This document shows, in pieces, positions 17,703-41,048 of a stretch of DNA of 64,000 bases (its first letter is position 1; the number at the start of each line of letters is the position of its first letter). The stretch spans positions 15,442 through 79,441 of the forward strand of contig JASMLC010000006.1 of the NCBI GenBank assembly GCA_030748895.1, given 5' to 3'. The position numbers and the translations under genes were made by a program. The notes under the pieces were generated by a model. That model ran no database searches. It was not told the origin of the DNA and worked only from the letters and a program-made list of their open reading frames with translations. Source of the stretch: Candidatus Poseidoniia archaeon. GTDB taxonomy: Archaea; Thermoplasmatota; Poseidoniia; MGIII; CG-Epi1.

Positions 17703-19789
17703 ATCTTCACCTGCGTTACGCGGCTATTGTAGAAGTTCATGATACTTGAGATTAACAGGCTCCCGACCTGATAGGTAACCAGCAGAAGCAGGAAGCTCGG
17801 AACGGCCTTACCGACCTTGTTCACGATCACCAGATTTACATAGAAAAAATCGTTGTAGGCCACGATGAGTGCCAAACTCGAATTTTTCCAAACATTCATG
17901 TACTGGTTGTTCAGCGAAGGAATCATGCTCCGGAGAGCTTGGGGGATTATCACCAATCGCAGTCGCTGGACAGGATTCAGCCCGAGGGCAATTGCAGCTT
18001 CAACCTGCCCATACGGAAGTGACTGGATGCTCCCCCGCACTATCTCGGCTACGTGTGAGCTAGTGTATAGAGTAAGCCCGGCCACTATAGCAATGAATGC
18101 GGGCGATATCTCGAAGCCCCCCTCCATCCGCCAGCTTCCCGGCTGATCGGATGGTTTCAGGTAGCTGGGATAGTCAATACCGCTCGAAACCGCGACAGCA
18201 ACAGCCACGACGATAGCCAGGAACCAGAGGATAATTCGTCGCCTGACACCTTTCTCGGAATCGTCAACTCCATTCCAGTCTTCATAACGAGTATAGAGCC
18301 ATGTACCAATCAGCACTGCAATCGCCCACGTGAAGTTTGAAAGCTGGACTACGGGAACCCAGATACCCTGATTACTGACAAAAATAATATCCATAATATC
18401 CATCTCTTCCCTGAATTGCGGTAATGATTGTCCCATCACGCTGCTGATGACGAAGAGCAGGACTGCGAATGGAAAGTTGCGGAATATCTCGACATATACC
18501 GTTGCAAGGCCTGAAGCCAGCTTGTTGCTGGAGAGTCGCGTAACGCCTACTATGAATCCCAGGATGGTACAGAGCAACACGCTTGCCAGCACAGCCCTTA
18601 CAGCATTCACGATGCCTGCGCGATAGAATTCCCATCGGCTTGCATTAGCGATATCAATCTGGTCAGGCCAGTTACTGATGTTGAAGCCCGCCTTGGCCTG
18701 CATGAATTCTAGGGTAATATCCCAGGACTGGTCTGTCTTGAGCAGTACCATCAATCTCAGGACTAGGTAGAGGATTAGTGGAATTGCCAGGAGGAAGGCC
18801 ATAGCGGCCGCCCTCTTGGCGGCGACAGCCGGCTTTGCCATCTCCAACGCCATCAGTTTCCACCAGACCAGAACTATCACCAGCATGGTTGCAGATAGCA
18901 CAGTGGGGAAATTCTGGGTTAGGTCCGGAAGGAATACGGCGTTGAGGAATATGAAAAGGAATATGCCAATTGCAACCATGGTTGCGATTACCGATTTCCA
19001 GGCTTTCTTCCAGATATCTACTGCATCTCCGGGATTGCGTGCTGTCTTTACGATGGTTATAATCAAGGTCTTGAGCTCATTCTGTAACAGCAGGAATCCT
19101 GTAAGTATCGAACCACCAATCATCAGGAAAGGAATCTGGGACCGGGGTGACAAGTCTGCAGAAGCAGACCATAATAGGATGATATAAAACACCACGATTC
19201 CAACGAGGGTAGTGATATAATTCTCCCAGTTGCACCATGCACGATACCATGACTGGCATGCGTCCCACCAAGCGTTTGCCACGTTCACTAAGTACCCGGA
19301 TTGTGCGGTTAAAGCCATTCCGAACGCAGATAGTGCCGTTCCATAGCCAAGATATTCGACCAGTACGCTCTGTGCCAGTAGTGCGTCGTATAGCGCTAGC
19401 ACCGCGCAAATCCCGTAGCTGGCTTGTGGCAGGTTAATAGCTTTTAACGTATCGGCCAGCAGACTGAAGAATTTCTCCAGATTCAGGATATGCTTTATTT
19501 CGTTCTGGATCAGGATGAAAGCTATCAGTATTGTACCGCCGATATATTTTACGGTGGTTTCCAGAGGATAATAGGCTTCATTGGATTCCAGCCCGCTCGG
19601 AAGCTTGATAGAGCGAGCTATCTGGATTACCATTTCGGTAGTAGGTTCGAGGAAAAACAGGATGTAATTCCAGAGAAGCACTGCCGCCAGAGCCGTTAAT
19701 GCAAGACCTTTCAGGTCATTCAGGGTCGGTAGCCGCAACTGCCGCAGTAACCACCCAGTGCCGCGGCTGCCAAACGCCTTCAGCTCCAT
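17699..19789 (-). CDS. amino-acid ABC transporter permease (AapQ/YhdX-like, unusually long)
   Basis: 696 aa polytopic membrane protein; C-terminal region carries permease signature [24 protein letters not shown]. Confidence 0.75.
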   Translation of the reverse strand: MELKAFGSRGTGWLLRQLRLPTLNDLKGLALTALAAVLLWNYILFFLEPTTEMVIQIARSIKLPSGLESNEAYYPLETTVKYIGGTILIAFILIQNEIKHILNLEKFFSLLADTLKAINLPQASYGICAVLALYDALLAQSVLVEYLGYGTALSAFGMALTAQSGYLVNVANAWWDACQSWYRAWCNWENYITTLVGIVVFYIILLWSASADLSPRSQIPFLMIGGSILTGFLLLQNELKTLIITIVKTARNPGDAVDIWKKAWKSVIATMVAIGIFLFIFLNAVFLPDLTQNFPTVLSATMLVIVLVWWKLMALEMAKPAVAAKRAAAMAFLLAIPLILYLVLRLMVLLKTDQSWDITLEFMQAKAGFNISNWPDQIDIANASRWEFYRAGIVNAVRAVLASVLLCTILGFIVGVTRLSSNKLASGLATVYVEIFRNFPFAVLLFVISSVMGQSLPQFREEMDIMDIIFVSNQGIWVPVVQLSNFTWAIAVLIGTWLYTRYEDWNGVDDSEKGVRRRIILWFLAIVVAVAVAVSSGIDYPSYLKPSDQPGSWRMEGGFEISPAFIAIVAGLTLYTSSHVAEIVRGSIQSLPYGQVEAAIALGLNPVQRLRLVIIPQALRSMIPSLNNQYMNVWKNSSLALIVAYNDFFYVNLVIVNKVGKAVPSFLLLLVTYQVGSLLISSIMNFYNSRVTQVKI

Positions 19790-19821
19790 ACTAAGGCTTG
19801 CACGTCAAACCCTGCTTTAAA

Positions 19822-19839
19822 CTCGGGGGGCCCCCTGAG
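19822..19839 (-). promoter_or_regulatory. GC-rich palindromic hairpin (CTCGGGGGG/CCCCCTGAG) between SBP gene and first permease gene, followed by U-tract on the transcribed strand
   Basis: Near-perfect 18-nt palindrome in the 93-nt intercistronic gap. Typical position for a partial terminator or mRNA-stabilising stem giving SBP excess over permeases. Confidence 0.4.
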
Positions 19840-19882
19840 GATAGTACCCCAGAGGGCGTATTCCATCGTGCCTGTTCCCGAG

Positions 19883-21070
19883 CTAACGCATCGGGGGCGC
19901 GAACTGCAGGCCACCGTTGGCGGCGAGGTCGTTTGCAGTTCCAGCGCGGTCAATCAGACAGTTGTTCATTCCACCGTCGCCGTCACAGAATGACCGGTCG
20001 TACGCTTCGCCGTAGTTACCTACAGCGCCGAGTACAGCTTGCATCCAGGTGTCAGCTAGTGGGTTGGTGGAGGTTCCAAGGCCGAGGTTCTGGTTCAGCA
20101 GCCTGTTGATACCGGGGTCGCCACCGTCGGCGGCGGCCGTGGTAGCCTCAGCTGCGTAGTTGGCGTTGGTAATGCCGAATTCCTCGGCAGTGATCATGCC
20201 GTACCATACCCATGCGACTACGTCATTCCAGTCGTCGTCGTTGTCACGGGTTGCGGCGCCGAGGGGCTCCTTGGAGAGCAGTTCCTTGGCTATCCAAGTT
20301 CCAGCGTAAAGAGCATCCCCTTCAACATACGTGTCCTGGTCGAGAATCCACTTGCGTGCAACCATGGCTGACATGTCGCCGGTGAAGGCGTCACATTCGC
20401 CAGCGACGAATTTCTCCGTTGCTTGTTCAGCGTTCTCGACATTTATGGCCTCGAATGTAATGCCGTTGAATGTGAAGTAGTCTGCCAGGTTCCCCTCAGT
20501 CGTAGTACCAGTTCCGACACAGATTTTTGCTCCGCCAAGGCCAGAAACTGAGTTGCTGGCGTTTGCTGCAGCGAATGAGTTCTCGCTAATCAGGATACCC
20601 TGACCGTCGTAGAAGTTCATTCCGGCGAAGTCCGCGTTCAGGCCCGCATCACGGCTGGTGGTCCAGGTCGTGGTACGAATCAGGACATCGATTTCCTCTG
20701 ATGCTAGTTTCTCGAAGCGGTCCGAGGAACTGGCGGGGACATACGTGATGTCGGTGTCCGGATTGAGTCCGATTGCGGCTGCTACAGCCCGGCAGTACTC
20801 GACATCGAGACCGGACCTCACACCGTCTTCAGACAGGTAACCCATTCCGAACTGGGATTCCTTCACTCCACATTTCATGGATCCGCGTGCGAGGATTGTG
20901 TCAAGCGTGCTGACTGGTGCTGTGTCAGCGACGCCCTTCGCATATCCTTCGTCGTAAGCGGCGTCGACGTCTTCCTGCGTAAGGCCGGAATCGTCGTCAC
21001 CGCCCAGGCAACCCGAGAGGGCCACAGTCGTCAACACCATCATGAGTGTTGCTGCGTAGGCTTGGCGCAT
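19883..21070 (-). CDS. amino-acid ABC transporter substrate-binding protein (AapJ-like), lipoprotein
   Basis: Track ORF to 21082 (GTG). ATG at about 21070 gives MRQAYAATLMMVLTTVALSGCLGGDDD (signal plus lipobox). Type-2 periplasmic binding fold, general L-amino-acid-binding family. Confidence 0.8.
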   Translation of the reverse strand: MRQAYAATLMMVLTTVALSGCLGGDDDSGLTQEDVDAAYDEGYAKGVADTAPVSTLDTILARGSMKCGVKESQFGMGYLSEDGVRSGLDVEYCRAVAAAIGLNPDTDITYVPASSSDRFEKLASEEIDVLIRTTTWTTSRDAGLNADFAGMNFYDGQGILISENSFAAANASNSVSGLGGAKICVGTGTTTEGNLADYFTFNGITFEAINVENAEQATEKFVAGECDAFTGDMSAMVARKWILDQDTYVEGDALYAGTWIAKELLSKEPLGAATRDNDDDWNDVVAWVWYGMITAEEFGITNANYAAEATTAAADGGDPGINRLLNQNLGLGTSTNPLADTWMQAVLGAVGNYGEAYDRSFCDGDGGMNNCLIDRAGTANDLAANGGLQFAPPMR

Positions 21071-21123
21071 ATTTACCCGCACGAGGCGGGTTGTATATAA
21101 CTGTAACTTATAAGGAAAAGGAT

Positions 21124-21161
21124 GACATTCGAAGATATATTAGTGCCAGTACAGCAAACCC
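21124..21161 (-). other. 16S rRNA 3' flanking processing-stem half (pairs with 22663..22700)
   Basis: GACATTCGAAGATAT... is the perfect reverse complement of the 5' flank segment ATATCTTCGAATGTC, with extended imperfect complementarity (GGGTTT.CTG.ACTGG). Expected bulge-helix-bulge processing helix around archaeal 16S. Confidence 0.7.
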
Positions 21162-21169
21162 GTGTTCTT

Positions 21170-22636
<1,467 letters not shown>

Positions 22637-22662
22637 TTTTACACACTTTTCTAGAAATTTTT

Positions 22663-22700
22663 GGGTTTACTGCACTGGTTTCACCATATCTTCGAATGTC
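22663..22700 (-). other. 16S rRNA 5' flanking processing-stem half (pairs with 21124..21161)
   Basis: See 3' flank; inverted repeat bracketing the 16S gene. Confidence 0.7.
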
Positions 22701-22746: not shown

Positions 22747-22882
22747 CAACAGCGGAAGACATCCATCATTGGAGAATCAGGATTCAGCCGAAACTGCTGC
22801 CACCGCAAAAAGCGGCTGCCCGGTGACGGCAGGGCCGGTCGGGCTCGCGTCCACCCAAGGTGGTGTATTTAAGCCGAATGGC

Positions 22883-25800
22883 TCACTCGTCGAGCTGCAA
22901 TCTGGTCGCACAACCGGTGCAATTTACTATCAACGGACGTTGTGAGCTGGTCACTTTCAGCATAGTACTGCACTTGGGGCACTGCAGAGTTATGGCCGCC
23001 ATGGCTGCGGCGGGACTGGCTGCTGGTGGAAGAATTGCATCCTGCGAACGCTGGTAGACGAACCAGGTTACACCCAGGCCGCCAACGAGCACCAGCCCCA
23101 CCAACACCAGTATCAGCAGCGGGCTGCCCGTATCGCTGCTGCCGCCCGGAGCGACCGCGGCGCTGCTGGCCGCAACGTCAAAGCGCAGGCTGCCACCATT
23201 ATCGAGTAGCGCTGCCGGACCACCCGCCTCCGCCGGCTGGATGTTGGCCAGCTGCACCTCGATAGTCACGTCGCCCGACATACTTCCCGGCACGTTCCAC
23301 ACCAGTTCAGGATACGCCTCACCGTTGGCCACGATATCGAATGTTCCGATGATATCAGAGTGGCCACCATAGACCACACGCACCTGTCCAGTGGCATCAG
23401 TGCCACCGTCATTGTAGATTGCCATCGAGATTGTGGCAACTTCGCCCGCCGTTGGCTTGGCAGGAGATATTGTGAGGCTGCTCTCATCAAGCAGCAATTC
23501 AGGTGGCTCAGCCACCGTCACGGTCGTGGATTCGTCGATGAACTCCAGCGCTTCGGGGTCCCATAGCCCTTGCTCTTCCTCGTTTACGGAATTGATGTTG
23601 AAGACGCGCGCCTGCAGGGTCCAGTCGCCGTAGAGCAGCTGCCCCATTCCTCCTTGCGATTCTGTGAAACGGACCTGAAATTCGAACAGCCGCTGGCCGT
23701 TTCCGAGGAATTCCTGGCCAGCCCAGTATGTCGGGTCGGCGGTGATGACCCGGGTGCCCTTGACCAGTTTGACTTCGACGCTCGTCAGGACATCGAACGA
23801 ACCGACATTCTGTAGAGTCATGCTGAAATCAACCAGCGAACCGTCCGAAATCTGGTCCGGAGTCCAGCTCACCTCGAGCATGGCGAAGCGTGCCAGTATC
23901 TGCACGTCAAGGTCCAGAAAACGCTCGTCGAGCGTCTTGCCAGTTTCGTTGTCGAGCAGCAGCAGATATAGCCTGTCAATTTCTTTCACAACCCAGTCAG
24001 CACTCCACTTTTTGGGAGTATCTACATCAATCTCGAAGCCCAGGTGTTGCATAATGAGCGGGCCATTGGAATCTGACTCGCGCACCCACAGGTCTACCAG
24101 TCCGCTCCGCTCGCCGCGATTGTCTATTTCGACCGAAACCACATTCGAAATCAGTTCAATAGGCGTAGTCACAAGATAGAAACCATCATTGACAATGTAG
24201 ATGTCGGGATTGGTTGCCGGGATGTCGACATTCACCTCACGATACCAGACACTGGCGCTGGCGGTCGAATCACCGGGGAAGGTTTCGATGACCTGCACTA
24301 TGATGGTGTGCTGTCCCTTCGGGATATCGTACCAGGTTGCCTTAGCTGTCCAGTCATCTCCGTCGGCGTAGACGTTGGTCGAGAAGTTGGCGATGCGATG
24401 CTCGAGGTCCTTGACGTCGTACCAGAACGCGACTTGTACGCGGGCGTTCGCGGCGCCGGTATTGCGCAATTTGGCTGTGATTTCGAGGTCTTCGCCCTGG
24501 CGCGGATTGGAGGGTACCAAATGCAGGCTGCGCAGTTCGACATCGCACTCCTCAGTCTCGATGGCGAGGTTATTCACCAACACGCGTCCCTGCGTCTGCG
24601 AACTGACGTAGAGCGTCGCGATTGCCACCTCATCTCCCCGGTTCTGCGCGTTGGTAACGCGTTTGTTGAGCTGGTCGATCAGGTTTTGATTCGTGATGGT
24701 GAGCGTGACCTCATATTCCACTTCCATGTTTGAAAGCCAGATAACACCCTTACTGTCACTGCTCACGGTAATTGGTATCCGGGCCATCTCAACTCCGTAT
24801 TCATCAACAAACGTGTCCGCATTGGCTAAAGCATCAACAAGGGATGCACGGAATGATTTTCCAGCAGCCCCAGGAGATGAGTCGGAATCCCATCGGACGG
24901 GTGAATTATTATTGTTAAATTCACCTGCCCACTGCCATTCGTACTGCCCACTGGAGCCTATATCGATTTTGGGGTTAAGAGGATAGTCACTGCCTTTGGT
25001 AGTTCTGACGAAAATATCGCTGTCATCCTTACCTGCACCATCAATATCTCCATTATCGCGGAAGGCAAGGTACGTTCGTTCACCTATTGCCAGTGCTGGA
25101 GCCTCGTTACCGAATGTGAGTTCGCCCTCTTCATTATCCGAGACGTGCACGAAATCTGACCAGTTCTGCCCCTGATCCATCGAAAATCGCATGTACATAT
25201 CGAATGTAGTGGCTATGTATCCGCCAAATAGAACCATCTTTTCGGCTGTGACATCATATGTCATGTCATGATAGTAACGGGCAATAGGGGTGGTATTAGT
25301 CTCAAGAAGAGCCCAAGAACCAGTTGTTCCATCAAGCACCCAAGTATCATCAGAATAGTATGGGGCACTAAGTTTGTATCCTCCAAAAACAACAATCAAA
25401 TCATTTTCACGATCATGTTTCATTGCGTGGTATCGCAGGGATTCTGGATGGGTAGTAGATTCCACCATGGTCCAGTTGCCCTCCCGGTACCGCCAAGTGC
25501 TTTCATCGTAACCAACTACGTCGATATATCCACCAAACATCATAATATTACCACTGTGATCACCAGCCATTTTGTGATAACTTCGCTTGCCTGGGTTTAT
25601 TGTAGTGTTAATTTCGTTCCATTTCTGAGTTTGAATGTTGAAGGCCCAAGTATCATTGAAACGCTGATAATAGCCTGTTTCGTTCATGCCGTAGCCACCA
25701 TACAGTATGACATCACCCGTAATATTGTCAAAAGCCATGGCGTGCTGGTAACGAGGTGCAGGGCCTCCCGCATCTGGAATCTCTAACCAGAGGTCCCTAT

Positions 25801-28800
25801 CAGCATAGTAAATCCAGGTGTCATTGCGATAAGCGTAAAATCCTGTGTCATTAAGGCCGTACCCACCAAACATTACAATCTGATCGCTATTCCAGTCGTT
25901 GGCCATTGCATGGAAATAACGTGCACTGGGGGTATCCTCACTAAAACTTTCCATCCAATTATTGTTGTTGTAGTAGTAAATCCAGGTCTTGTTGGTATAA
26001 CCTGTGTTAGTTGACCCCCCAAACATCACTGAACTGGTAAAACCAGAAAGTGACACGCCAGTGGCCATTGTGTGATAATAAGTTGGTTCGGGATGGTTGC
26101 TTGGTGTGCGCTCAGTCCAGTTTTGTTCATCAAAATCAAAACCCCACGTATCATCGATACGTCCTGATGCCGGTCTTTCCATCCAGAGCGCATAGAGCAA
26201 TCCGTTTCCAGCCTTGAGACTGGCATAGGTCTGGGCGTTAGACATGTATGGGTCATCATCATCACTTATAACTACGGTAGATTCCCAGGTCGTACCATGG
26301 TCCAGAGAGGCAATCATTACCAGGTCGTAGTCAGCAGTGCCGTCCTTGTCAAAATCACCATAATCTCGCCATGCTACAAAGACACCGGAAGCATCGGCAG
26401 CGAGACAGGGATACATGGAGGATTCTGCAGTTGAATTGGTGATTCTGATGGGCTCGTCCCAATCGTTACCTTGGTTACTGGAACGTGTATAGTGGATTTC
26501 ATAATCAAAACGTTCCCCATCATTATAATATGATTCCCAGGCAATATGAACTTTACCTCCACCTATATCGATTGATGGGCGATAATTACTATCACCATCA
26601 GTTATCCTTTCACCGTAGCCCCAATTTACCCCATAATCGCGTGAAGTACGGACCATTATCTCTGTCCCTTCCCGGTATGCAACGTGAACTCGTGCTCCTT
26701 CAGCAGCGATTACCGGATCATAAGAAAAAGTATCCTCGCGAGTTACTGCTATGGGCTCGCTCCATGACCCCCCCTGGTCGCTGGAATGTGCGAAAGCGAT
26801 GTACCAACCGCCGCCCGTGTCGATCGTACTTGGCACGCTCGCAATCCATATTACATACAGGTGATTACCGGTAGCGACCATTCTTGGCTGATACTGAAAA
26901 TTTCCGTGAGGGTTATAGATTATCTGGTCTCCTTCTTCTGAAATAACACTCGGGTCGCTCCAGGAAGCACCGTTATCATCCGAACGGCGATAAAATATAT
27001 CTCCATCGTCATTGTGAGCATTGTTGCCGTTATCACCTATTTCTCCACCATCCCAATAGATAAGATGCAGATAGTTTTCCGTAGCAGCCAGAGCAGGCAT
27101 GCTTGATTCAATTGATTCATAGTATTGTTCTGAAAGATAGACTGGTTGCGACCAACTTTGTCCCCTATCGCTGCTCTGCGATACAGAAATATCCATATCT
27201 CCACCGGTTCCAGAGGCCGGTTCCCGGTCCCCCCAGGCCATTACCACATCATCACCATCAATGTCTATGCTGGGCCAGTCCCTGGCGACAGAAGCTGCAC
27301 CAGAGTTTGCCTCAACAGGCTCCCCAAAAGAACCTCCACTATTTGTTGATCTTACAACCATAATTCCTGGATCGCCGTCATTCTGTGTCCTTGCCCAAAC
27401 GAGAATCACCTCGCCCTCCGAATCTGCTCTAATCTCGAGTGGATTGTAAGGAAAGGCGTAGAATCCATCATCATTTTCATCCGAAATCAGGTTTATTGCT
27501 CCAAAAGTAAGGCCCCCATTGGATGAACTGCGCATCTGGACTTCATAAGTTCCCCTATTATTAGTGAAATATTCGTACCATCCTACATGAACATAATTAC
27601 TGGCACCCACAGTTGCAACGGCAACCATGGGTCGATAGCCACTATTCTCAGTCCCTGCTTCGTGCATCTGGTAAGGGATGGACCATAATTGGCCATTGTT
27701 AGTAGAACGGCTGTAGGATGTAATGTAACGAGCCAATCCGTCGCTTGTGAAATTATATTCAGTCCATACTGCATGAAGGTTTTCCCCATTTGCTGCGAAA
27801 CGGCATTGGTATGATGTACTGGAACTCGAGGGGGAATTGACTTGCACTGGGTCACTCCAGCTGACACCGCCATCACTGGTGTATCGGTGATAAATATCAT
27901 AGTCAAAACCTGAACCAGACATATTGCCACTATCACTCCACAATAGGTGTAGATTATCACCTTCTTTTACAAGATCATAATCGTATATGTAATTTCCTCC
28001 ATTGGCACGAATAGACTTGAAACTGGACCATGATTCCCCACCATTTACTGAGGTGATCCAGGTCAACTTGTTGGGATATGCGTTGTCTATCCAGCTGAGG
28101 TAGAGCGTACCATCGTCCTCGAATATCCAGGGCATCAGATAGGCTGTTGTAGTACGGCTGAGAAGCTTTGCATTATTCCAGCTTCCATCCGTATAGCTCC
28201 TGAAGATAATGCTGTCATACGTTGTGCTTCGGGTTTCAAGGTCTCCATCATCAAGCCATGCAACAAATATGTCACCGTCTGAATTCCGGGCTACAGCCGG
28301 TGTCTGCGATATGGAGCCGCCATTAGTTTCTGTAGAGGCGAGTTTGTAAGGGTTGAGCTCCCCGGTGCCGTAAGCGTAACCTGTAATGTTCAGGGTGGCT
28401 TCGTGTATAGTTGCGTTGGCAGGAATCAGTATCCCGGCATTGACCTCGTCAGCAGTATGGAACACCGTCGCCTTGCCGGGGCCGCCACTGTCAAAGGTCT
28501 GCTGCATCCCGAGCGCGCCGTATCCCTGCCCGGAATAGCGCCACCTCTCATTACGGACCTGCACCTCGATGTCGGAGGGATACGCCCCGTCAAGCGCTTC
28601 ACCGGTCACTTGCAGCGAGGCAGAGGTGACGGTCGAAGCAGGGAATTCCAGCGTCACCGAGCCGTTGCGGTCCGCTTCGCTGAAGTCGTAAACGACCGAG
28701 TCCAGCTTCTGTTCATACTGAGTGAATTCGCTGGTGGTTTCAGCTCCAGCCAGCAGGGCGAGGTCGGCCCCCAGCAGGCAGAGCACGACGAAGACGGGCA

Positions 28801-28810
28801 GCAGGCGCAT
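22883..28810 (-). CDS. giant cell-surface protein (1975 aa): signal peptide, BNR/Asp-box propeller repeats, Kelch-like repeats, Ig/CARDB-like domains, C-terminal TM helix plus cytoplasmic zinc ribbon
   Basis: MRLLPVFVVLCLLGADLALLAGA signal. At least 10 SxDxGxxW repeats (SVNGGESWS, SDGGVSWSD, SSDRGQSWSQ, SDDNGASWSD, SSDQGGSWSE, SRDYGVNWG, SLDHGTTWES...). Six Kelch-like units (..RY.HAM..D....MFGGYG). C-terminus ...LILVLVGLVLVGGLGVTWFVYQR...CPKCSTML...CTGCATRLQLDE. TTTATA box about 22 nt upstream of ATG (leaderless). Lower GC than core genes. Confidence 0.8.
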   Translation of the reverse strand: MRLLPVFVVLCLLGADLALLAGAETTSEFTQYEQKLDSVVYDFSEADRNGSVTLEFPASTVTSASLQVTGEALDGAYPSDIEVQVRNERWRYSGQGYGALGMQQTFDSGGPGKATVFHTADEVNAGILIPANATIHEATLNITGYAYGTGELNPYKLASTETNGGSISQTPAVARNSDGDIFVAWLDDGDLETRSTTYDSIIFRSYTDGSWNNAKLLSRTTTAYLMPWIFEDDGTLYLSWIDNAYPNKLTWITSVNGGESWSSFKSIRANGGNYIYDYDLVKEGDNLHLLWSDSGNMSGSGFDYDIYHRYTSDGGVSWSDPVQVNSPSSSSTSYQCRFAANGENLHAVWTEYNFTSDGLARYITSYSRSTNNGQLWSIPYQMHEAGTENSGYRPMVAVATVGASNYVHVGWYEYFTNNRGTYEVQMRSSSNGGLTFGAINLISDENDDGFYAFPYNPLEIRADSEGEVILVWARTQNDGDPGIMVVRSTNSGGSFGEPVEANSGAASVARDWPSIDIDGDDVVMAWGDREPASGTGGDMDISVSQSSDRGQSWSQPVYLSEQYYESIESSMPALAATENYLHLIYWDGGEIGDNGNNAHNDDGDIFYRRSDDNGASWSDPSVISEEGDQIIYNPHGNFQYQPRMVATGNHLYVIWIASVPSTIDTGGGWYIAFAHSSDQGGSWSEPIAVTREDTFSYDPVIAAEGARVHVAYREGTEIMVRTSRDYGVNWGYGERITDGDSNYRPSIDIGGGKVHIAWESYYNDGERFDYEIHYTRSSNQGNDWDEPIRITNSTAESSMYPCLAADASGVFVAWRDYGDFDKDGTADYDLVMIASLDHGTTWESTVVISDDDDPYMSNAQTYASLKAGNGLLYALWMERPASGRIDDTWGFDFDEQNWTERTPSNHPEPTYYHTMATGVSLSGFTSSVMFGGSTNTGYTNKTWIYYYNNNNWMESFSEDTPSARYFHAMANDWNSDQIVMFGGYGLNDTGFYAYRNDTWIYYADRDLWLEIPDAGGPAPRYQHAMAFDNITGDVILYGGYGMNETGYYQRFNDTWAFNIQTQKWNEINTTINPGKRSYHKMAGDHSGNIMMFGGYIDVVGYDESTWRYREGNWTMVESTTHPESLRYHAMKHDRENDLIVVFGGYKLSAPYYSDDTWVLDGTTGSWALLETNTTPIARYYHDMTYDVTAEKMVLFGGYIATTFDMYMRFSMDQGQNWSDFVHVSDNEEGELTFGNEAPALAIGERTYLAFRDNGDIDGAGKDDSDIFVRTTKGSDYPLNPKIDIGSSGQYEWQWAGEFNNNNSPVRWDSDSSPGAAGKSFRASLVDALANADTFVDEYGVEMARIPITVSSDSKGVIWLSNMEVEYEVTLTITNQNLIDQLNKRVTNAQNRGDEVAIATLYVSSQTQGRVLVNNLAIETEECDVELRSLHLVPSNPRQGEDLEITAKLRNTGAANARVQVAFWYDVKDLEHRIANFSTNVYADGDDWTAKATWYDIPKGQHTIIVQVIETFPGDSTASASVWYREVNVDIPATNPDIYIVNDGFYLVTTPIELISNVVSVEIDNRGERSGLVDLWVRESDSNGPLIMQHLGFEIDVDTPKKWSADWVVKEIDRLYLLLLDNETGKTLDERFLDLDVQILARFAMLEVSWTPDQISDGSLVDFSMTLQNVGSFDVLTSVEVKLVKGTRVITADPTYWAGQEFLGNGQRLFEFQVRFTESQGGMGQLLYGDWTLQARVFNINSVNEEEQGLWDPEALEFIDESTTVTVAEPPELLLDESSLTISPAKPTAGEVATISMAIYNDGGTDATGQVRVVYGGHSDIIGTFDIVANGEAYPELVWNVPGSMSGDVTIEVQLANIQPAEAGGPAALLDNGGSLRFDVAASSAAVAPGGSSDTGSPLLILVLVGLVLVGGLGVTWFVYQRSQDAILPPAASPAAAMAAITLQCPKCSTMLKVTSSQRPLIVNCTGCATRLQLDE

Positions 28811-28850
28811 GGGCTGCCGAAAGTAGGCTGCTATAAATGAGTACGGATAA

Positions 28851-31800
28851 TCACTCCAGCTTCAGATGGGTCTGGCAGCCCGGACACGCCACGGTCAGCG
28901 GCCGACGCGTGTCTGCAATTTTCAGCTGCGTCTGGCAGCCGGGGCACTGGATGGTTACTGCGGCGGCCGCGGCTGGCGCTACCGGGGCGGCTTGAGGCGC
29001 AGGTTGGGGAGCCGCCGGTGCGGCCGGAGGTGGTGGGGGCGCGGAGGCGACGGGCGGCGCTGCCGGAGCGGGCTCGCCGAGCGCATCTTCCTCGTCAGCA
29101 GGCTGGTCGCCCCCCGTGCGCTGGAAGTAGAAGAAAATTCCGCCCAGCCCAACCAGTAGCATGGCGAAAACCAGCAGGAAAAACGTCAGATTGCCGAGGT
29201 CACCCTCGCCTTCGCTGCCACCACCGGGCTGGGTCACCTTGCCTTTGATGTCGAGCGTGGTGGAAGCGCTGTTATCCTCGGTGCTGGCGCCCTCCATTTC
29301 AGCCGGTGTGATTGATACCAGTTCGGCCTCGAACGGTGTTTCGCCGTCGATATTCGGGCCGACAATCCATTCAATCGTAACATCAGTATCGGCAAAGTCG
29401 CCCGCAACGCTGAACGGAGCGGACTCGATGATGGTGCCGGAGCGAACGAGGTTCACGACGCCGCTTGCGGGCGAATCTCCGCTATTGAGCACCGTGATGG
29501 TGAAGGTGACGGTATCGCCAAAGCTGGGTGTGGAAGGCGAAGCGGTGAATGAGTTAATCGAGAGGTCAGGCGGCTCCGCGACGTTCAGCGTGTAGCTGGT
29601 GTCGATGAAGTGCATTTCTTCCGGGTCCCAGAGGCCTTCGTCAGTGCTATGCTCGGGGCGAACTTCCTTAACGTTCACCTCCAGCGTCCACTGGCCGGTA
29701 AAACCAGAATATTTCGAGGCGTCAAACTCGAAGAGCGGCAGGTTGCCATCCTGCGTCAGGAGCTGGCTCTGCCCGGCGGGGAAAAGCACGTTGGGGAAAT
29801 AATTCGGTGCAACATCCTCCAGCCGGTTGTTGCCGCGCGTCAACGAAATCTCGATGTCGGCCCTGGCATCAAAAGAGCCGCTGTTCTGGATCATAATCTG
29901 CGCATATGCCTCCACACCGTCGGTAAAGATGGTGATCAGGTTCTCGTCGGCGTCCTGCCACTCCACAGAGATGACGTTGAAGTCTACCAGTGTCTGCACC
30001 GAGGGAATCATAAACTCCCGCACATACACGGTGCCGTCGTCGTGGTCAACAACCAGTAACAGTAACTCCTCAACGTCCTTGTCAGCGACCCAGTCAGCAC
30101 TGCGCTGCTTGGTCTCGTCCTCATTAATCTGCACGCCCAGCTCGGAAAGAACGGCAAAGCCGTCCTCATCATCCTCGTATACGTAGATGTCGACTGTCCC
30201 GTACCGGTCGCCGCTATTGTAGAGCTCGACAAGCAGTTCGGTCTCCTCGCCATCAATGGCAGTATCATCAAGCCGGAACGTTTCGACATCGAATGCCGGA
30301 GAAGTTGCCTGGAATTCGTAGTACTGCCGCCAGGTGTTGCCGGCCGTGTCGCTGTCGTCTGGCACCGAGTCGACGATGCTGACAATCAGCTCGTGGCTGC
30401 CGGCGGGCGGGTCCTGCCAGATGGCTGAGACCTGAACATTGCCGCCGGACGGCACGGTTACCGACGACACGTTTCCGAGCTGATTAGACAGAGAAACCTC
30501 ATCATACCAGAAAGCAATCTGGGCAGATACATCTCCGTCCCCATCATTCGAAATAGTCGCGGTAATCGTCAAATCATGGCCTTGGCGCGGAGGGTCGTCA
30601 CTAAGTTGGACCGAATCGATTTCAAGTTCAGCATTGGTCGTTCGGAGATTGAGCTCCTTCAGGACTACGCGCCCCTGCGTGCCGGCGGTTACCGAGATAG
30701 CGGTCTCAACAGTCTCGTCATCCTCGTCAGCATTATTGACCAGTGAGTTGAGCCGGCTCAACAGGGTGGCGCTGCCGAAGACGAGGTCGACGTCGTATTC
30801 CACCGAGAGCGAGTTGAGCCGTACTACTCCTTCGCCATCACTGTGCAACTGTAGCTCAAGCCGTGCCATTTCGACTCCGTACTGGTCCACTTCCGTCTCA
30901 GCTTCTGCCAGAGCGTCGTTAAGTGCGTCCACGAGCGATTTCTGGGCGCCAGGTGAACCACTGTCGCTCCATGTCACTGGCGAATTGTCATCATTCAGCT
31001 CACCACCCCATTGCCAGTCATTACTTCCGTCGCCATCCATATCAATTGAGGGATTGTCGGGATACTCCTCACCCAGAGTTGTGCGCAGGAAAATGTCTGA
31101 ATCATCTGCCCCGGCGCTCGCAATATTTCTTCCATCGGCCCACGCGAAATAGGCACGATTTCCTATCGCTGTGGCAGGCGCCATGTAGTTGTAGCTGGAC
31201 TGGCTGTCACCATTGTATTCTGAAATGGGGAGTATATCCGACCAACTCTCTCCGTCATCCTGAGTAAAACGGAAAAAGTGCTGCCACTCGGTAGTACTGC
31301 CATCGGTCAGGTCCTGCCACGCGACATAAGTGATTCCGTTGCCTGTGACAAGGGCGGGAAAGGTGTAGTAGAAATAGGCGGTGGAATCATCACTGACAAC
31401 AAATGCTTTGTCCCAGGTTACGCCACCATCCTTGGAATGCTTGACAATCACATCGTAATCAGCTACGGCATCACCATCGTAGTCACCATACTCGCGCCAA
31501 GCCACGAACAAACTGTCGTCCTGGCCGCTAACAGAAGGTGAAAGTGATGTAGTGGACGACTCCTCTGTGTCGATTGTCTGGGGCTCGCTCCAGGTCGCAC
31601 CATTATCGTCACTGTTACTGTAAAGAATAGTGTACTGGTTAGTGTTAGTCCAAACCAGCTGGATTTTTCCTCCAGCAAGCGCCATCCAAGGCTGGTCATC
31701 CCAGTCCCCATTATCCGCAGGAACGACTATGTCATCCCAGTTTTGGCCGTAATCGGCAGAATGCCGGAAGGCGATATCATAATCATTCCCACTGCTGTCA

Positions 31801-33956
31801 ACATTCCCGTCTTCAACCCAAGCTATGTAGACGTGCGCGCCCTCCGAAAGAACAAACGGAGCAAACGACCAGTCGTCAGAGCCATGATCGGATATGATGA
31901 ATGGCGTACCCCAGTTTGATCCCCTGTCACTGGATACGGACATCAGGATGTCATAGTCAAGGAGGCTATCCTCGTCGTATAATCCATAATCTACCCAGGC
32001 GACATAGACATAGTCCCCACTAGCGGATATCGAAGGGCGATAATCTGTCTGCTCAACGCTGTTACCATTAGTATCTGCATCTCCATCAAAATGTGAGATT
32101 ACAATGGGGCTGCTCCAACTCTCACCATCATCGCTGGAATGGCGAAAAAATATATCGCCATCATCACCATGGGCATCATTACCGTTGCTATCGGATTGCT
32201 GATTAAGGTCACCTCCATCCCAGTATGCGAGGTACAACGAATCTCCTGAAGTAGCGAGCGCGGGCATCCACGAATCCGCTTCATAGTAATGTTCGGAAAT
32301 CTGATTTACGACTGACCATGAACTGCCTCCATCGCCAGAAGTGGCATAGTGGATGTCCTGCTCACTCGAGGCTCCACCGCTGCTGTCACGGTCCGACCAG
32401 ACCACAGCAATGTCCGAGCCCTCGGCAGTGACCCAAGGTGAGGCGCGGAAGTCAACCTCTACATCGTTATCAATTGTCTCGGGGTCGCTCCAGGTCGTGC
32501 CGCCATTGGAGGAGTCGCTGATAACAATCCGGTAGGGCTGGTCTGCATCCACCGTTGTACGACGCCATGTACTGTAGAACCCCCCGTCGCCATCAGCCGC
32601 GACGGAGACGAACGCAACATTGTTGTCATCGGAAGTTGAGAGGGTACTCTCAGTACCGAAACTGGTTCCCCCGTTCGAGGAAGCTCTTGCCTTGACGGAA
32701 GGCTGGGCGCCAGTCTCGGCGTTGGAATCTATCCATATCACGACCACGCGATTTCCGTCATCGACATCGATGTTGCAATCATTGACGGTACGGTCGACCG
32801 AACTCAGCTGCTGTTGCGTGCCGAAGGTAGTGCCGCGGTTACTGGATTGACGGTACTGGACTGTGTAGTATGCGTTGTCACTGTCATACTCCATCCACAC
32901 CACGTAAACATTACTGCCGCTTACAGCCACTGCAGGGTAGAGGCTGCTCTGATCGCTCGACGAAGACACGAGGGTCGGTGTGCTCCAGCTATCGCCACCA
33001 TCATCGGAGGAAACGACATAGATGTCGGGGTCTGTGCCCTGATTACTCATATTATTGTCATCGGCATAAACCACGTAGACATACCCGTCGGTAGCAGCCA
33101 TGGCAAGACCATAGGTTAGGTTACTCTCATCAAGATCAACTTTCTTGGTCTCGGACCAGCTGCTGCCGCTATTGGTAGATACACGCAAATGAATCTCATC
33201 GCCTTTCACGGTCAATAAGCCATATGATTCCCAAGCCGCGTAGAGGGTTGAGCCATCGCGTGCCAGAGTCTGGTAGTCCAGTATGGGTGAGCTACTGGTG
33301 CCGCTACTGGCGAGTACGACAGCATCATTCCAATTACTGCTGGTGTAGCTACGGAAGAGGATATTCTCGTAGTTCACATCGCTCAGGTTCCCATAATCCT
33401 GCCAGATTACGAATAGGTCATCGCCATTATTGACAACTTTCGGGGCATAACTGACAGAACCACCATTAGTATCGATTGAGGATAATCTGAAATCATCTAA
33501 CTCACCCGAACCATAGGGCAATCCGCTAATGTCGACCGTGGCGTCCGTCACGGTTGCATTGGCCGGAATAAGCATCTCAATCGTATCATCACCGGCGGAG
33601 GGGAAGCTGGCGCTGGCACTGTTGCCGCCGCTGACGAAGAGCTGCTGCCGTCCCAGTTCGCCATAGCCCTTGCCACTGTACCTCCAGGTGCTGCTGCTCA
33701 CCGCGACTTCGATGTCGCTGGCGTAATCGCCGTCGTCATCGGCGCCGCCGCTGATGGTGATTGCTGCCTCGAGCACCTCCGCCCGCGGGAAGAGCAGGCT
33801 GGTCAGCGCATCCTCCTCGCCGCTGGTGAGGTCGAGGCTGACGCTGTCGGTGTACGCGTCGTCACGGTAATACTGCGTGACGGTCTCGCCCATGGCCGGG
33901 ATGTTCAGCACCAGCAGTGCGGCGAGCAAAAGCGAAAACAGGCGTTGGGAGTACAT
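28851..33956 (-). CDS. giant cell-surface protein (about 1700 aa), paralog of 22883..28810 with the same domain order and the same C-terminal TM plus zinc-ribbon tail
   Basis: Track ORF to 34061. Probable start MYSQRLFSLLLAALLVLNIPAMG (ATG about 33956) with TTTAAAA box about 30 nt upstream. Many BNR repeats (SNGGTSFG, SSNGGTTWSD, SGDGGSSWS, SDDGESWSS, SSDRGSNWG, SADYGQNWDD, SDDNGATWSE, SKDGGVTWD, QDDGESWSD). C-terminus ...FFLLVFAMLLVGLGGIFFYFQR-(Pro/Ala-rich linker)-CPGCQTQLKIADTRRPLTVACPGCQTHLKLE. Confidence 0.8.
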   Translation of the reverse strand: MYSQRLFSLLLAALLVLNIPAMGETVTQYYRDDAYTDSVSLDLTSGEEDALTSLLFPRAEVLEAAITISGGADDDGDYASDIEVAVSSSTWRYSGKGYGELGRQQLFVSGGNSASASFPSAGDDTIEMLIPANATVTDATVDISGLPYGSGELDDFRLSSIDTNGGSVSYAPKVVNNGDDLFVIWQDYGNLSDVNYENILFRSYTSSNWNDAVVLASSGTSSSPILDYQTLARDGSTLYAAWESYGLLTVKGDEIHLRVSTNSGSSWSETKKVDLDESNLTYGLAMAATDGYVYVVYADDNNMSNQGTDPDIYVVSSDDGGDSWSTPTLVSSSSDQSSLYPAVAVSGSNVYVVWMEYDSDNAYYTVQYRQSSNRGTTFGTQQQLSSVDRTVNDCNIDVDDGNRVVVIWIDSNAETGAQPSVKARASSNGGTSFGTESTLSTSDDNNVAFVSVAADGDGGFYSTWRRTTVDADQPYRIVISDSSNGGTTWSDPETIDNDVEVDFRASPWVTAEGSDIAVVWSDRDSSGGASSEQDIHYATSGDGGSSWSVVNQISEHYYEADSWMPALATSGDSLYLAYWDGGDLNQQSDSNGNDAHGDDGDIFFRHSSDDGESWSSPIVISHFDGDADTNGNSVEQTDYRPSISASGDYVYVAWVDYGLYDEDSLLDYDILMSVSSDRGSNWGTPFIISDHGSDDWSFAPFVLSEGAHVYIAWVEDGNVDSSGNDYDIAFRHSADYGQNWDDIVVPADNGDWDDQPWMALAGGKIQLVWTNTNQYTILYSNSDDNGATWSEPQTIDTEESSTTSLSPSVSGQDDSLFVAWREYGDYDGDAVADYDVIVKHSKDGGVTWDKAFVVSDDSTAYFYYTFPALVTGNGITYVAWQDLTDGSTTEWQHFFRFTQDDGESWSDILPISEYNGDSQSSYNYMAPATAIGNRAYFAWADGRNIASAGADDSDIFLRTTLGEEYPDNPSIDMDGDGSNDWQWGGELNDDNSPVTWSDSGSPGAQKSLVDALNDALAEAETEVDQYGVEMARLELQLHSDGEGVVRLNSLSVEYDVDLVFGSATLLSRLNSLVNNADEDDETVETAISVTAGTQGRVVLKELNLRTTNAELEIDSVQLSDDPPRQGHDLTITATISNDGDGDVSAQIAFWYDEVSLSNQLGNVSSVTVPSGGNVQVSAIWQDPPAGSHELIVSIVDSVPDDSDTAGNTWRQYYEFQATSPAFDVETFRLDDTAIDGEETELLVELYNSGDRYGTVDIYVYEDDEDGFAVLSELGVQINEDETKQRSADWVADKDVEELLLLVVDHDDGTVYVREFMIPSVQTLVDFNVISVEWQDADENLITIFTDGVEAYAQIMIQNSGSFDARADIEISLTRGNNRLEDVAPNYFPNVLFPAGQSQLLTQDGNLPLFEFDASKYSGFTGQWTLEVNVKEVRPEHSTDEGLWDPEEMHFIDTSYTLNVAEPPDLSINSFTASPSTPSFGDTVTFTITVLNSGDSPASGVVNLVRSGTIIESAPFSVAGDFADTDVTIEWIVGPNIDGETPFEAELVSITPAEMEGASTEDNSASTTLDIKGKVTQPGGGSEGEGDLGNLTFFLLVFAMLLVGLGGIFFYFQRTGGDQPADEEDALGEPAPAAPPVASAPPPPPAAPAAPQPAPQAAPVAPAAAAAVTIQCPGCQTQLKIADTRRPLTVACPGCQTHLKLE

Positions 33957-34015
33957 GCGTGGCCTCGACCCCTCCTGCTCCAACGCCATTTTAAACTTCA
34001 CGCGCTGGCACGACC

Positions 34016-34738
34016 GTGACTGAGCAACTGCACATGGCCTCGTTCGAGGGCACCTACACACGCCAGTTCTCGGCGACGGTCGAGGCGGTCCACCCGGGAA
34101 TCGTCGAGCTGGACCGCACGGCGTTCTACCCGTTCGGCGGCGGGCAGCCGGCCGATACAGGCCGGCTCGAATGGGAGGGCGGCACAGCGAGCGTCGAGGA
34201 CGTACGCAAGCGCAACCGCCTGCGGCACATGGTTGCGGGCGACCTGCCGGAGGTCGGCACGACGGTCGAGGGCGCCCTCAACTGGGAGCGGCGCTACGCG
34301 CACATGAAGATGCACTCCTCACAGCACCTCGTCTCGGCGGTCGTCGACCAGCTCCACGGTGCGCGCACCGTCGGCAACCAGCTTTACGCCGACAAAGCGC
34401 GCATCGATTTCCAGCCGCTGCGGCTCTCCCCCGCGCAGCTATCCGAGGTCGAGGCCGAAGCGAACCGCTACCTTGCGAGGGACTTGCCGGTCACCATCAC
34501 CGAGGGCGAGCGCAGCGAGCTGGAGCAGGACCCGCTGGTGCGCTCGAACCTCGCGCTGCTCCCGCCATCAATCAAACGCCTGCGCGTCATAAGCATCGGC
34601 AACCTGGATACCTGTCCCTGCGCCGGCACGCATGTCCGCTCCCTCGGGGAAATCGGCGAAATCGAGTTCACGAAGCGCGATAACAAAGGCAGCGGCAAGC
34701 AGCGGCTGACGTATGCGCTGCGCGACCCCACCCCTTAA
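34016..34738 (+). CDS. alaX: alanyl-tRNA editing protein AlaX (AlaX-M type, Ser-tRNA(Ala) deacylase)
   Basis: 240 aa; FYPFGGGQP.D.G motif, zinc-binding HSSQHL and CAGTHV motifs of the AlaRS editing domain. GTG start at 34016 in the track; ATG alternative at 34034. Confidence 0.75.
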   Translation: MTEQLHMASFEGTYTRQFSATVEAVHPGIVELDRTAFYPFGGGQPADTGRLEWEGGTASVEDVRKRNRLRHMVAGDLPEVGTTVEGALNWERRYAHMKMHSSQHLVSAVVDQLHGARTVGNQLYADKARIDFQPLRLSPAQLSEVEAEANRYLARDLPVTITEGERSELEQDPLVRSNLALLPPSIKRLRVISIGNLDTCPCAGTHVRSLGEIGEIEFTKRDNKGSGKQRLTYALRDPTP

Positions 34739-37990: not shown

Positions 37991-38135
37991 GAACTATATG
38001 GGTTTTATTAACAGACGTATGAGTCTGGCAATGGTGGCCTTGAAGGACATCACTAGTGACGAGAAGGAAATTGAAAGGATTCAGTCCTACTTTGTAGATG
38101 ATGACGAAGAAGAAAATATCGCAGGAGACAAATAA

Positions 38136-38840: not shown

Positions 38841-38864
38841 AAGCGAAATCCTGTGGAAGAATCA

Positions 38865-39191
38865 CTATATGTGGGAGTCTGAGGGGCTTGGATCTGCCCT
38901 GCATATCTTGGTTGGAGACTCCAGAAAGCGATTGATGGCAATCTCGGCTATATTGGAACCATATTCACCTATCCAGGCGATATTCCAGCCAATCGACCGG
39001 ATACTGGAGGCAAGGGTAGGATGAAAATCGGCTGTCAGCTTGAATAATATAGAAGTAAAGGCCGCTTCCTCTTCCTTCAGGATACCGCGGCGGATGATCG
39101 CTTCATTGGCAAGTCCTATGTCACGGTTGATAAGTGAGGAGAGTGCCATCTCCAGAGACTCCATGACTGTGTGCCCCATTTCGATTCCCAT
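38865..39191 (-). CDS. PhoU-domain protein (single PhoU repeat); start uncertain
   Basis: Track ORF 38865..39311. The C-terminal 90 aa match the PhoU motif (..DIGLANEAIIRRGILKEEEA...NIAWIGEYGSNIAEIAI, like dLERIGDhavNIAE). The S/T-rich N-terminal 40 aa are probably not translated. An overlapping plus-strand ORF exists (see rejected). Confidence 0.4.
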   Translation of the reverse strand: MGIEMGHTVMESLEMALSSLINRDIGLANEAIIRRGILKEEEAAFTSILFKLTADFHPTLASSIRSIGWNIAWIGEYGSNIAEIAINRFLESPTKICRADPSPSDSHI

Positions 39192-39401
39192 TGAAGAAGA
39201 ATATACCGTTGATTTTTTTGCAGATAAAGCGGGTGAATTCACATACCGTAGTACTGGGCTGTGCAAAGTCGAGATTGCTGGAGGCAATGAAGTAATCGTA
39301 GACTGCTCCATATTTTGTGGTGAGATAGGTAATGCACGTACGGGAACAATTGTGATTGAGTCAAATCCTTCTGGTTAGTCCTATTCAGTCAAAGATTCAG
39401 G

Positions 39402-40088: not shown

Positions 40089-40090
40089 AA

Positions 40091-41039: not shown

Positions 41040-41048
41040 GGTCTTAAT

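Follow-up and report, generated by a model that had tools for sequence, protein, structure and literature searches.

What do the two giant genes encode that stand in tandem beside the solitary 16S rRNA gene of a Marine Group III archaeon, and what might their products do at the cell surface? The genes, here called G1 and G2, lie on contig JASMLC010000006.1 of a Candidatus Poseidoniia archaeon (assembly GCA_030748895.1); the whole 64,000-nucleotide (nt) stretch analysed, positions 15,442 to 79,441 of the forward strand, is referred to below as the window. A reading of the letters alone, made without database searches (the sequence-only reading), had singled out the pair as the best candidate for an undescribed system, and the family is indeed unnamed in the sources searched; no description of the cell surface of these uncultured archaea was found in the literature searched. 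The answer developed here is that both genes are functional, belong to Marine Group III (Poseidoniia) and encode paralogous type-I membrane proteins, in which two unannotated domains bracket a head of beta-propellers raised on immunoglobulin-like (Ig) domains. As judged from sequence comparisons, and with due caution, their role is probably that of a non-enzymatic surface receptor or adhesin.

Genes and domain architecture of G1 and G2

22883..28810, minus strand: G1, 1975 amino acids (aa), ATG start, Kelch-bearing giant surface protein (open reading frame, translation, Pfam)
28851..33956, minus strand: G2, 1701 aa, Kelch-less paralogue of G1 (Pfam BNR_2, CARDB, DUF11)

The two open reading frames (ORFs) are co-oriented and paralogous, as the sequence-only reading had stated, with 35% identity from end to end in a pairwise protein alignment. 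The frame of G2 is open over 28851..34061 of the minus strand, with an alternative upstream GTG start; since this longer reading overlaps the start of a divergent AlaX-like gene (~34037, plus strand), translation most plausibly begins at ATG 33956, giving the N-terminus MYSQRLFSLLL, and G2 orthologues are called at ~1697-1714 aa. Orthologues of G1 recovered in the homologue search are 94, 80 and 49% identical to it. Relative to the 94%-identical relative (L024), the ratio of nonsynonymous to synonymous substitution rates (dN/dS) is 0.09 for G1 and 0.17 for G2, next to 0.14 for AlaX and 0.11 for SRP54 on the same contigs, and both giant genes are under purifying selection comparable to that on their housekeeping neighbours. 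Strong diversifying selection on the head was considered and rejected at short range, as the propeller region of G1 has a dN/dS of 0.06-0.13, the same as AlaX and SRP54.

The GC content of both genes is, as previously noted, lower than that of the surroundings (0.51 in G1 and 0.56 in G2 versus 0.67 in the flanking AlaX gene), and the deficit is distributed as a mosaic. Along G1, GC at third codon positions (GC3) amounts to 0.73 in codons 1-150, to 0.39-0.48 in the propeller-coding codons 150-1350 and to 0.63-0.73 afterwards, compared with 0.87 in AlaX; in both giant genes of the window, and also in L024, L025 and L002, the ends have a GC3 of 0.63-0.81 and the propeller-coding middle a lower one. 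Such a mosaic could suggest joined pieces, and the long ORFs would then be artefacts, either assembly chimeras, a doubt that the sequence-only reading had itself raised, or decaying pseudogenes open by chance. The probability of this explanation is negligible: the full-length genes, with their GC3 dip, recur on contigs that were assembled independently from different samples, dN/dS is 0.09-0.17, many invariant columns are common to 18 aligned family members, and the AlphaFold2 (AF2) models are confident. The low dN/dS together with the full-length orthologues on many independent contigs thus shows that the ORFs are real, neither chance frames nor chimeras. Nor do the data support a recent horizontal transfer as the origin of the low GC3 in the propeller region: orthologues only 49% identical keep the dip, which is missing from low-GC Marine Group III genomes with a uniform GC3 of ~0.24, and it thus appears to be old.

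The predicted domain order comprises a signal peptide, an N-domain, a head, a neck domain, four CARDB-like Ig domains, one transmembrane (TM) helix, a Pro/Ala-rich cytoplasmic linker and a 35-residue zinc ribbon, placed as follows.

28742..28810, minus strand: G1 signal peptide, residues 1-23 (hydrophobic window, residues 1-7+19; presumed to be cleaved)
28316..28741, minus strand: G1 N-domain, residues ~24-165, beta-sandwich without a Pfam family, first half of the bracket
26174..28315, minus strand: G1 Asp-box blades 1 to 13a of two seven-bladed propellers, residues ~166-879
25211..26173, minus strand: G1 six-bladed Kelch propeller, residues ~880-1200, nested in a loop of Asp-box blade 13
25019..25210, minus strand: G1 rest of blade 13 and blade 14, residues ~1201-1264, Asp-box SMDQGQNW at 1210, aligned to G2 889-950
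24536..25018, minus strand: G1 neck domain, residues ~1265-1425, without a Pfam family, second half of the bracket
23171..24535, minus strand: G1 stalk of four CARDB-like Ig domains, residues ~1426-1880
23054..23122, minus strand: G1 TM helix, residues ~1897-1919, the only internal hydrophobic window >1.8, a helix in the AF2 model
22886..23053, minus strand: G1 cytoplasmic tail with putative Cys4 zinc ribbon, CPKC...CTGC, Cys 1944/1947/1964/1967
33447..33887, minus strand: G2 N-domain, residues ~24-170 (alignment and AF2 model)
31107..33446, minus strand: G2 two seven-bladed Asp-box propellers, residues ~171-950, 14 blades
30606..31106, minus strand: G2 neck domain, residues ~951-1117 (alignment, local hmmsearch, AF2 model)
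29232..30605, minus strand: G2 Ig-like stalk of CARDB/DUF11 type (CARDB 38.5 bits, DUF11 28.7 bits), aligned to the G1 Ig region
29124..29189, minus strand: G2 TM helix, residues ~1590-1611 (hydrophobic windows at 1585-1594)
28854..29123, minus strand: G2 cytoplasmic Pro/Ala-rich linker and putative Cys4 zinc ribbon, Cys 1671/1674/1691/1694

A hydrophobicity scan finds in each protein the N-terminal signal segment and exactly one other hydrophobic segment, near the C-terminus; together with the family alignment this bears out the signal peptide, single TM helix and conserved cytoplasmic tail proposed earlier, cleavage of the signal being presumed. Directly after the signal segment a conserved AET motif is found across the family. 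Both proteins have a pI of 4.0-4.3 and few Cys residues, 1-3 in the ectodomain (0-4 across family members, except for 16 in P0016), and the last 35 residues hold four of the eight Cys of G1 and four of the five of G2.

It is in the head that the two proteins differ. The BNR/Asp-box array of the sequence-only reading stands in corrected form: BNR_2 reaches 65.2 bits in G1 and 63.4 bits in G2 (Pfam cut-off 31.4), 12 clear SxDxGxxW Asp-boxes (12-13 counted) lie in the propeller region of each protein, and an AF2 model of G2 residues 20-1110, with a predicted local distance difference test (pLDDT) of 81, has 14 blades, which are best read as two seven-bladed propellers. The six Kelch-like repeats are confined to G1, in which PF24681 scores 236.8 bits (E 2e-70, cut-off 50), PF24981 119 bits (E 3e-34) and Kelch_3 (PF13415) 76.5 bits, and in which six FGG[YS] motifs are present; in G2 no Kelch match was found in Pfam at E<=1 and the Kelch region of G1 is aligned to a gap. 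The two proteins therefore do not have the same domain order, and the stacked BNR and Kelch propellers that had been attributed to both are replaced by a Kelch propeller in G1 only, inserted within a blade loop, as seen by comparing WQDLTDGSTTEWQHFFRFTQDDGESW of G2 with WMERPASGRIDDTW...[Kelch]...TTFDMYMRFSMDQGQNW of G1.

The Ig/CARDB-like domains proposed earlier were recovered, CARDB being above its Pfam cut-off in both proteins. An AF2 model of G1 residues 1265-1975 has four Ig domains and the TM helix, with the tail at low confidence, and the Ig domains match the folds of CARDB and of a Methanosarcina cell-surface protein. The N-domain (pLDDT ~90 in the AF2 model of G2, model residues 1-127) is marked by the invariant residues W90, Y92, G96-Y97-G98, L100, G101, Q103 and F106, and the neck by R1269, P1277, P1280, W1292, E1297, D1336, G1339 and M1342 (G1 numbering). 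The neck has a pLDDT of 86-94 when modelled with the N-terminal part (G2) and of 40-70 without it (G1 1265-1975); since it is confidently modelled only with the N-terminal part present, the models fit the idea that N-domain and neck form a conserved bracket packed at the base of the head.

The ribbon of the cytoplasmic tail has the pattern CPxC...CxGC. Its matches to Zn_ribbon_4, Zn_ribbon_5, MJ0042 and TIGR02098, as well as that of gliding_GltJ over the Pro-rich linker, are below thresholds, and the isolated G2 tail reaches E 1.6e-5 and 25.0 bits with Zn_ribbon_5 (cut-off 29.3). The tail is kept in all family members, in most clades as a Cys4 version and in one Marine Group III clade (P0007-P0015 and P0022; loci L001, L007-L009, L011-L014 and L018) as a Cys-free VPxGxxPG version, in which both Cys knuckles are replaced (ITVPAGAQPGQQIQIKAPDGRVVAVTIPAGLQEGSQFQVKI) and the module is retained. 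This Cys-free module, VPxGxQPGQQIQIKAPDGRVVAVxIPAGxQxGxQFQVKI, belongs to the same length class as the ribbon, has a weak DnaJ_C-like match (E 5e-4) and looks like a zinc ribbon turned metal-free. No ribbon tail was found on other proteins among the remaining window ORFs or the related loci examined. The ribbons of MJ0042 type and of Zn_ribbon_4/5 are likewise short CxxC...CxxC ribbons joined through a Pro-rich linker to a TM helix; those of G1 and G2 differ in being C-terminal, in matching below all curated cut-offs and in having a Cys-free clade. Myxococcus GltJ is reportedly a membrane protein with an N-terminal ZnR.

The bracket superfamily and the Marine Group III locus

The two bracket domains, the probable zinc-ribbon nature of the tail and the larger superfamily with interchangeable heads had been overlooked in the sequence-only reading. 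The bracket superfamily is defined here by an N-domain, a variable head, a neck, an Ig array and a C-terminal TM helix, and a protein was counted as a member when it has an N-domain among its first ~200 residues and, further downstream in the same chain, a neck. In G1 and G2 the N-domain is found at about 23-171 and 22-173, and the neck at about 1261-1427 and 951-1115, respectively. The N-domain has no Pfam match above E 0.1, and profile searches with N-domain and neck found neither a Pfam family nor a PDB sequence relative. Among 1.84 billion representative proteins, the N-domain profile matches 373 at E<=1e-3, of which 103 reach E<=1e-10; nearly all of the matches listed have the N-domain within their first 200 residues, and the full-length ones are mostly 900-2200 aa long. 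Of the 103 N-domain proteins that reach 900 aa or more, 102 also contain a neck, which is separated from the N-domain by 119-1093 residues. By Pfam, the heads of 38 members from outside Marine Group III include FG-GAP (in at least 15), NHL, CBM96 and LamG, and the neck is followed by arrays of Big_7, Big_9, He_PIG, cadherin-like, PKD or CARDB domains; in many of these members a TM helix close to the C-terminus is accompanied by a long tail of low complexity, and roughly one in four terminates in a CxxC...CxxC ribbon. By these profile comparisons, the bracket encloses interchangeable heads in a large unnamed superfamily.

An origin of N-domain and neck as mutual duplicates was not established (hhalign probability 21%); cross-matches of the broadened profiles over a ~25-residue motif, with independent E-values of 1e-4 to 5e-3, are suggestive. 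Within the window the superfamily is represented by G1 and G2 only. Other surface proteins of the window were tried as members and have neither N-domain nor neck: an 856-aa protein with Big_7 domains (42472-45042, plus strand), a 973-aa protein with three CARDB domains (52609-55530, minus strand), and two paralogous Asp-box proteins of ~490-530 aa in a low-GC stretch (9256-10842 and 10928-12394, plus strand) with weak BNR_2 matches and lipobox-like LAGC signals. These two putative lipoproteins at 9.3-12.4 kb are distantly related to G1 and G2 through the Asp-box motif only; the start of ORF 9256 overlaps a tRNA at 9220-9292, and the true start is probably the downstream MKPKHTL. Elsewhere, in the locus L029 from outside Marine Group III, giant surface-type genes lie at 922-7674 and 17069-22666, with a second bracket-superfamily gene directly downstream, and in L030 a 1054-aa Kelch protein (4383-7547) adjoins an FG-GAP bracket protein.

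In Marine Group III the giant genes occupy a characteristic position, flanked and preceded by the following elements.

21170..22637, minus strand: solitary archaeal 16S rRNA gene (Rfam RF01959, 1485 bits)
22807..22832, minus strand: terminator-like element (hairpin, then a T5 run) in the spacer that separates the G1 stop from the 16S gene
28832..28837, minus strand: TATA box TTTATA of G1, 21-27 nt upstream of its ATG
33989..33995, minus strand: TATA-like box TTTAAAA of G2, 33-39 nt upstream of its ATG
34037..34738, plus strand: divergent AlaX-like gene (Pfam tRNA_SAD / tRNA-synt_2c)

The 16S gene begins 245 nt downstream of the G1 stop and no 23S gene was found in the window, in agreement with the earlier statement that the pair stands immediately upstream of a solitary 16S gene. 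This position, whose conservation the sequence-only reading had left to a homologue search, is kept across Marine Group III loci: 16S adjacency is the same in 15 related loci, the AlaX neighbour is kept in nearly all that retain the upstream flank, and the order AlaX<- ->giant gene(s)->16S holds wherever flanks are long enough, with 16S identities to the window of 89-98%. The first homologue search returned 16 relatives, either Kelch-bearing (~1980 aa) or Kelch-less (~1700 aa), all unnamed by their sources. A scan of GTDB with one genome per species gave 16 confident loci (L004-L019), several labelled Marine Group III and the others Poseidoniia, Methanobacteriota, Thermoplasmata and, in one case, Thalassarchaeaceae; judging by synteny and 16S similarity for the loci with broader labels, all close relatives look like members of Marine Group III. 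In L013 the 16S gene is interrupted by ~320 nt (11046-11368) between positions 856/857 of the window 16S, as seen from a split blastn match, possibly an rRNA intron or an assembly issue.

The locus exists in three states: a single Kelch-less gene (L001, L007-L009, L011-L014), a tandem pair (the window, L002-L005, L024) and a single Kelch-bearing gene (L031, P0024). The Kelch propeller of P0024 has flanks that resemble G2 (45-60% identity) and is itself 34% identical to that of G1; these G2-like flanks around a Kelch indicate that the insertion is not tied to the duplication. A related clade, that of P0060, comprises proteins of ~1830 aa which are 26% identical to G2 over N-domain, propellers and neck, most of them with a Cys4 tail, and its genes adjoin HisRS (L026, L027) or stand in another setting (L028), not beside 16S.

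The sequence-only reading had placed a TATA box 22-30 nt upstream of each ATG and concluded that the two genes are independently transcribed and leaderless. The box of G1 is present, at 21-27 nt, and is kept as TTTATAGC with the same spacing in seven loci with otherwise differing flanks; this conservation at fixed spacing makes it plausible that G1 has a promoter of its own and an mRNA with little or no leader. The box of G2 lies further away, at 33-39 nt, which suggests a short leader; it sits in the 80-nt divergent intergenic region common to G2 and AlaX and is identical in L024. Other TATA-like boxes stand ~26-33 nt upstream in L002, L003, L005 and L001. A scan of the 40 nt between G2 and G1 found no terminator-like site, so that read-through from G2 into G1 is possible, and independent transcription, plausible for G1, was not confirmed for the pair.

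Receptor or adhesin, envelope protein or enzyme

Asp-box blades are common to G1, G2 and the bacterial sialidases of glycoside hydrolase family 33 (GH33, BNR_2), and the sequence-only reading had accordingly proposed binding or degradation of glycans or polymers. Sialidases are six-bladed. Neither a six-bladed catalytic propeller nor the GH33 signature of an Arg triad, a Tyr/Glu nucleophile pair, an Asp acid/base and the (F/Y)RIP motif was found in G1 and G2. GH33 profile matches are weak (best E 4e-9), with the alignment confined to Asp-box blades, the first blade left unaligned and modest alignment confidence; hidden Markov model alignments to 6mnj, 9db6 and 4bbw place the GPGRG Arg within an insert and the TEAQ Glu and GYS Tyr opposite non-conserved columns. 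No RIP motif occurs in the propellers of any family member, and a single-sequence search found no PDB relative of G2. The catalytic signature is thus unmatched in PDB profile alignments, in the motif search and in the single-sequence PDB search, and a sialidase or other glycosidase function, including the degradation role proposed earlier, is unsupported and was retained only as an improbable alternative. The propellers resemble those of lectins, integrins and YncE more than those of sialidases. A non-enzymatic role is favoured because the heads that Pfam identifies in the superfamily are binding modules, the GH33 catalytic residues are unmatched and the RIP motif is missing.

The enzymatic explanation in its widest form would make the tandem Asp-box propellers a surface-tethered glycoside hydrolase, whether a GH74-like endo-/exo-glucanase or a sialidase-like enzyme, that degrades algal or particle polysaccharides with the Kelch propeller as a substrate-binding module. 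In its favour one can count BNR_2 above the Pfam cut-off, the weak GH33 matches, the GH74 tandem-propeller enzyme 6p2k as best global Foldseek match, and the description of Marine Group III as scavengers of organic compounds (PMC4660358). Given that the GH33 Arg, Glu and Tyr are not aligned to conserved residues, that no GH74 chain appears among the PDB sequence matches at E<=0.01, and that superfamily relatives have non-catalytic heads at the same position, it is quite improbable. A different and more serious alternative, unlikely but deserving attention, is that G1 and G2 (or the single orthologue) are the main envelope protein of the surface-layer (S-layer) type, whose heads self-assemble into a canopy on Ig stalks anchored by the TM helix, binding being secondary. 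Several archaeal S-layer proteins have an Ig-like stalk with a C-terminal TM anchor, an arrangement present here too, with Ig domains matching a Methanosarcina cell-surface protein; moreover, one gene or pair per genome occupies a fixed locus across the whole order, with a conserved TATA box and a near-leaderless start, the ectodomain is very acidic and almost Cys-free, and at distance the protein diverges faster than housekeeping genes (G1 49% identical where AlaX is 83% and 16S 98.3%). However, a superfamily that carries many different binding heads, with two members adjacent in the non-Marine Group III locus L029, makes an adhesin or receptor repertoire likelier, a conserved cytoplasmic linker and ribbon would be unusual for an S-layer protein, and the related P0060 clade is found at a different locus. 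An envelope role would in any case be compatible with that of a receptor or adhesin.

The receptor or adhesin that we prefer may work as follows. The cell probably has no wall, and the Ig stalk would lift the acidic head, which Ca2+ probably stabilises, to a distance of tens of nanometres from the membrane; there the head would bind, but not break down, an external ligand, be it a glycan, a polymer, a particle or another cell. The cytoplasmic ribbon may tie the protein to an intracellular partner in the manner of an integrin alpha subunit or an adhesin, and in the paired clade the two paralogues would offer different heads and may act together. As for Ca2+, acidic loops of G1 (YGDFDKDGTADYD) and the most conserved segment of the family, NGNDAHxDDGDIFF (within SEHYYEADS...NGNDAHxDDGDIFF, G1 residues 540-620), recall the Dx[DN]xDG motif (reviewed in PMC3123361), and the conserved acidic loops look like Ca2+ sites. 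Strict integrin-like DxDxDGxxD motifs were sought as a family-wide feature and occur in G1, G2 and a few relatives only, the general acidic loop being conserved; the Ca2+ sites consequently remain putative. This partial conservation of the DxDxDG-like loops weighs against the preferred role, as do the position of the zinc-ribbon assignment below Pfam cut-offs and the low confidence at which the tail is modelled.

Large archaeal surface proteins combining propellers and Ig-like domains are a known kind, and several described systems invite comparison. Methanosarcina surface-layer proteins, reportedly described by Jing et al. in 2002, are said to combine a YVTN beta-propeller with PKD or Ig-like domains. 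The repeat families of such proteins have been reviewed (PMC2447325). The Methanosarcina proteins have YVTN blades where G1 and G2 have Asp-box and Kelch blades in two or three propellers per chain, no described counterpart of the bracket, TM anchor and cytoplasmic zinc-ribbon tail, and no sequence relationship to G1 and G2 beyond the Ig fold. Prokaryotic proteins with integrin-type FG-GAP propellers are also known (PMC3192720). Unlike integrin alpha subunits, G1 and G2 have no FG-GAP match in Pfam, although bracket relatives do; no beta-subunit partner is known for them, their tail is a putative zinc ribbon, and the bracket domains are absent from integrins. GH74 xyloglucanases, whose catalytic Asp pair is situated in the cleft between the propellers, likewise have tandem seven-bladed Asp-box propellers, and Foldseek aligns 6p2k over ~950 columns (TM score 0.37-0.48), but no sequence similarity is detectable and the propellers of G1 and G2 are part of a membrane-anchored multi-domain protein, in G1 with an inserted Kelch. 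Sortilin/VPS10 receptors, too, are type-I membrane proteins with an Asp-box propeller as ligand-binding head (Foldseek E ~1e-10). Sortilin has one ten-bladed propeller and Cys-rich 10CC modules, in contrast to the two seven-bladed propellers (14 blades) and 1-3 ectodomain Cys here, and the Sortilin-Vps10 profile, which the sequence-only reading had proposed to check, gives no Pfam match in G1 or G2. For the bracket, the Asp-box tandem head with a nested Kelch, the ribbon tail and the order-wide syntenic position, no description was found in the literature searched.

Other features of the window and significance

Between the 16S gene and the genes of eRF1 (14252-15364) and AspRS (12966-14252) the window carries an ABC transporter on the minus strand (15406-21082), made up of a family-3 solute-binding protein (19883..21082), an ATPase and two permeases that, at 696 and 515 aa, are unusually long. 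In L001, a low-GC locus of Marine Group III, eRF1 and AspRS come directly after the 16S gene; this locus also encodes giant beta-helix/NosD proteins of 1727 and 1622 aa (4045-9228 and 23833-25145). A very low-GC island at ~38000-41100, in surroundings of ~65% GC, may be foreign DNA and includes a hemerythrin/ScdA-type gene (38136-38840, GC 0.34, GC3 0.28) and a cation-efflux gene (40434-41039, GC 0.45). A C/D-box sRNA lies at 41387-41440 on the minus strand (Rfam sR3, 43.4 bits versus a gathering score of 41).

It is tempting to extend the receptor interpretation to the bracket superfamily as a whole, which would then be an archaeal counterpart of integrin-type transmembrane receptors: swappable propeller or lectin heads would sense ligands, the linker and ribbon (or its Cys-free derivative) would relay binding to a partner in the cytoplasm, for instance a transcription factor, the cytoskeleton or the division machinery, and the G gene or genes of Marine Group III would encode a protein that dominates the envelope and serves as the chief connection of the cell interior with its surroundings. 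This broad scheme is speculative and, taken as a whole, improbable.

The wider significance of these observations lies at several levels. Two unannotated domains that bracket swappable binding heads in hundreds of large membrane proteins delineate a modular family missed by domain databases, and many giant proteins now called hypothetical could gain annotation through the N-domain and neck. The nesting of a whole Kelch propeller in a blade loop of another propeller and the replacement of a putative zinc ribbon by a seemingly metal-free version in one clade are evolutionary curiosities in their own right. For the biology of Marine Group III, one giant surface protein, or a pair, encoded at a fixed locus across the sampled loci provides a target for metaproteomics, for labelling with antibodies or by approaches of the fluorescence in situ hybridization type, for cryo-electron tomography and for studies of virus receptors.

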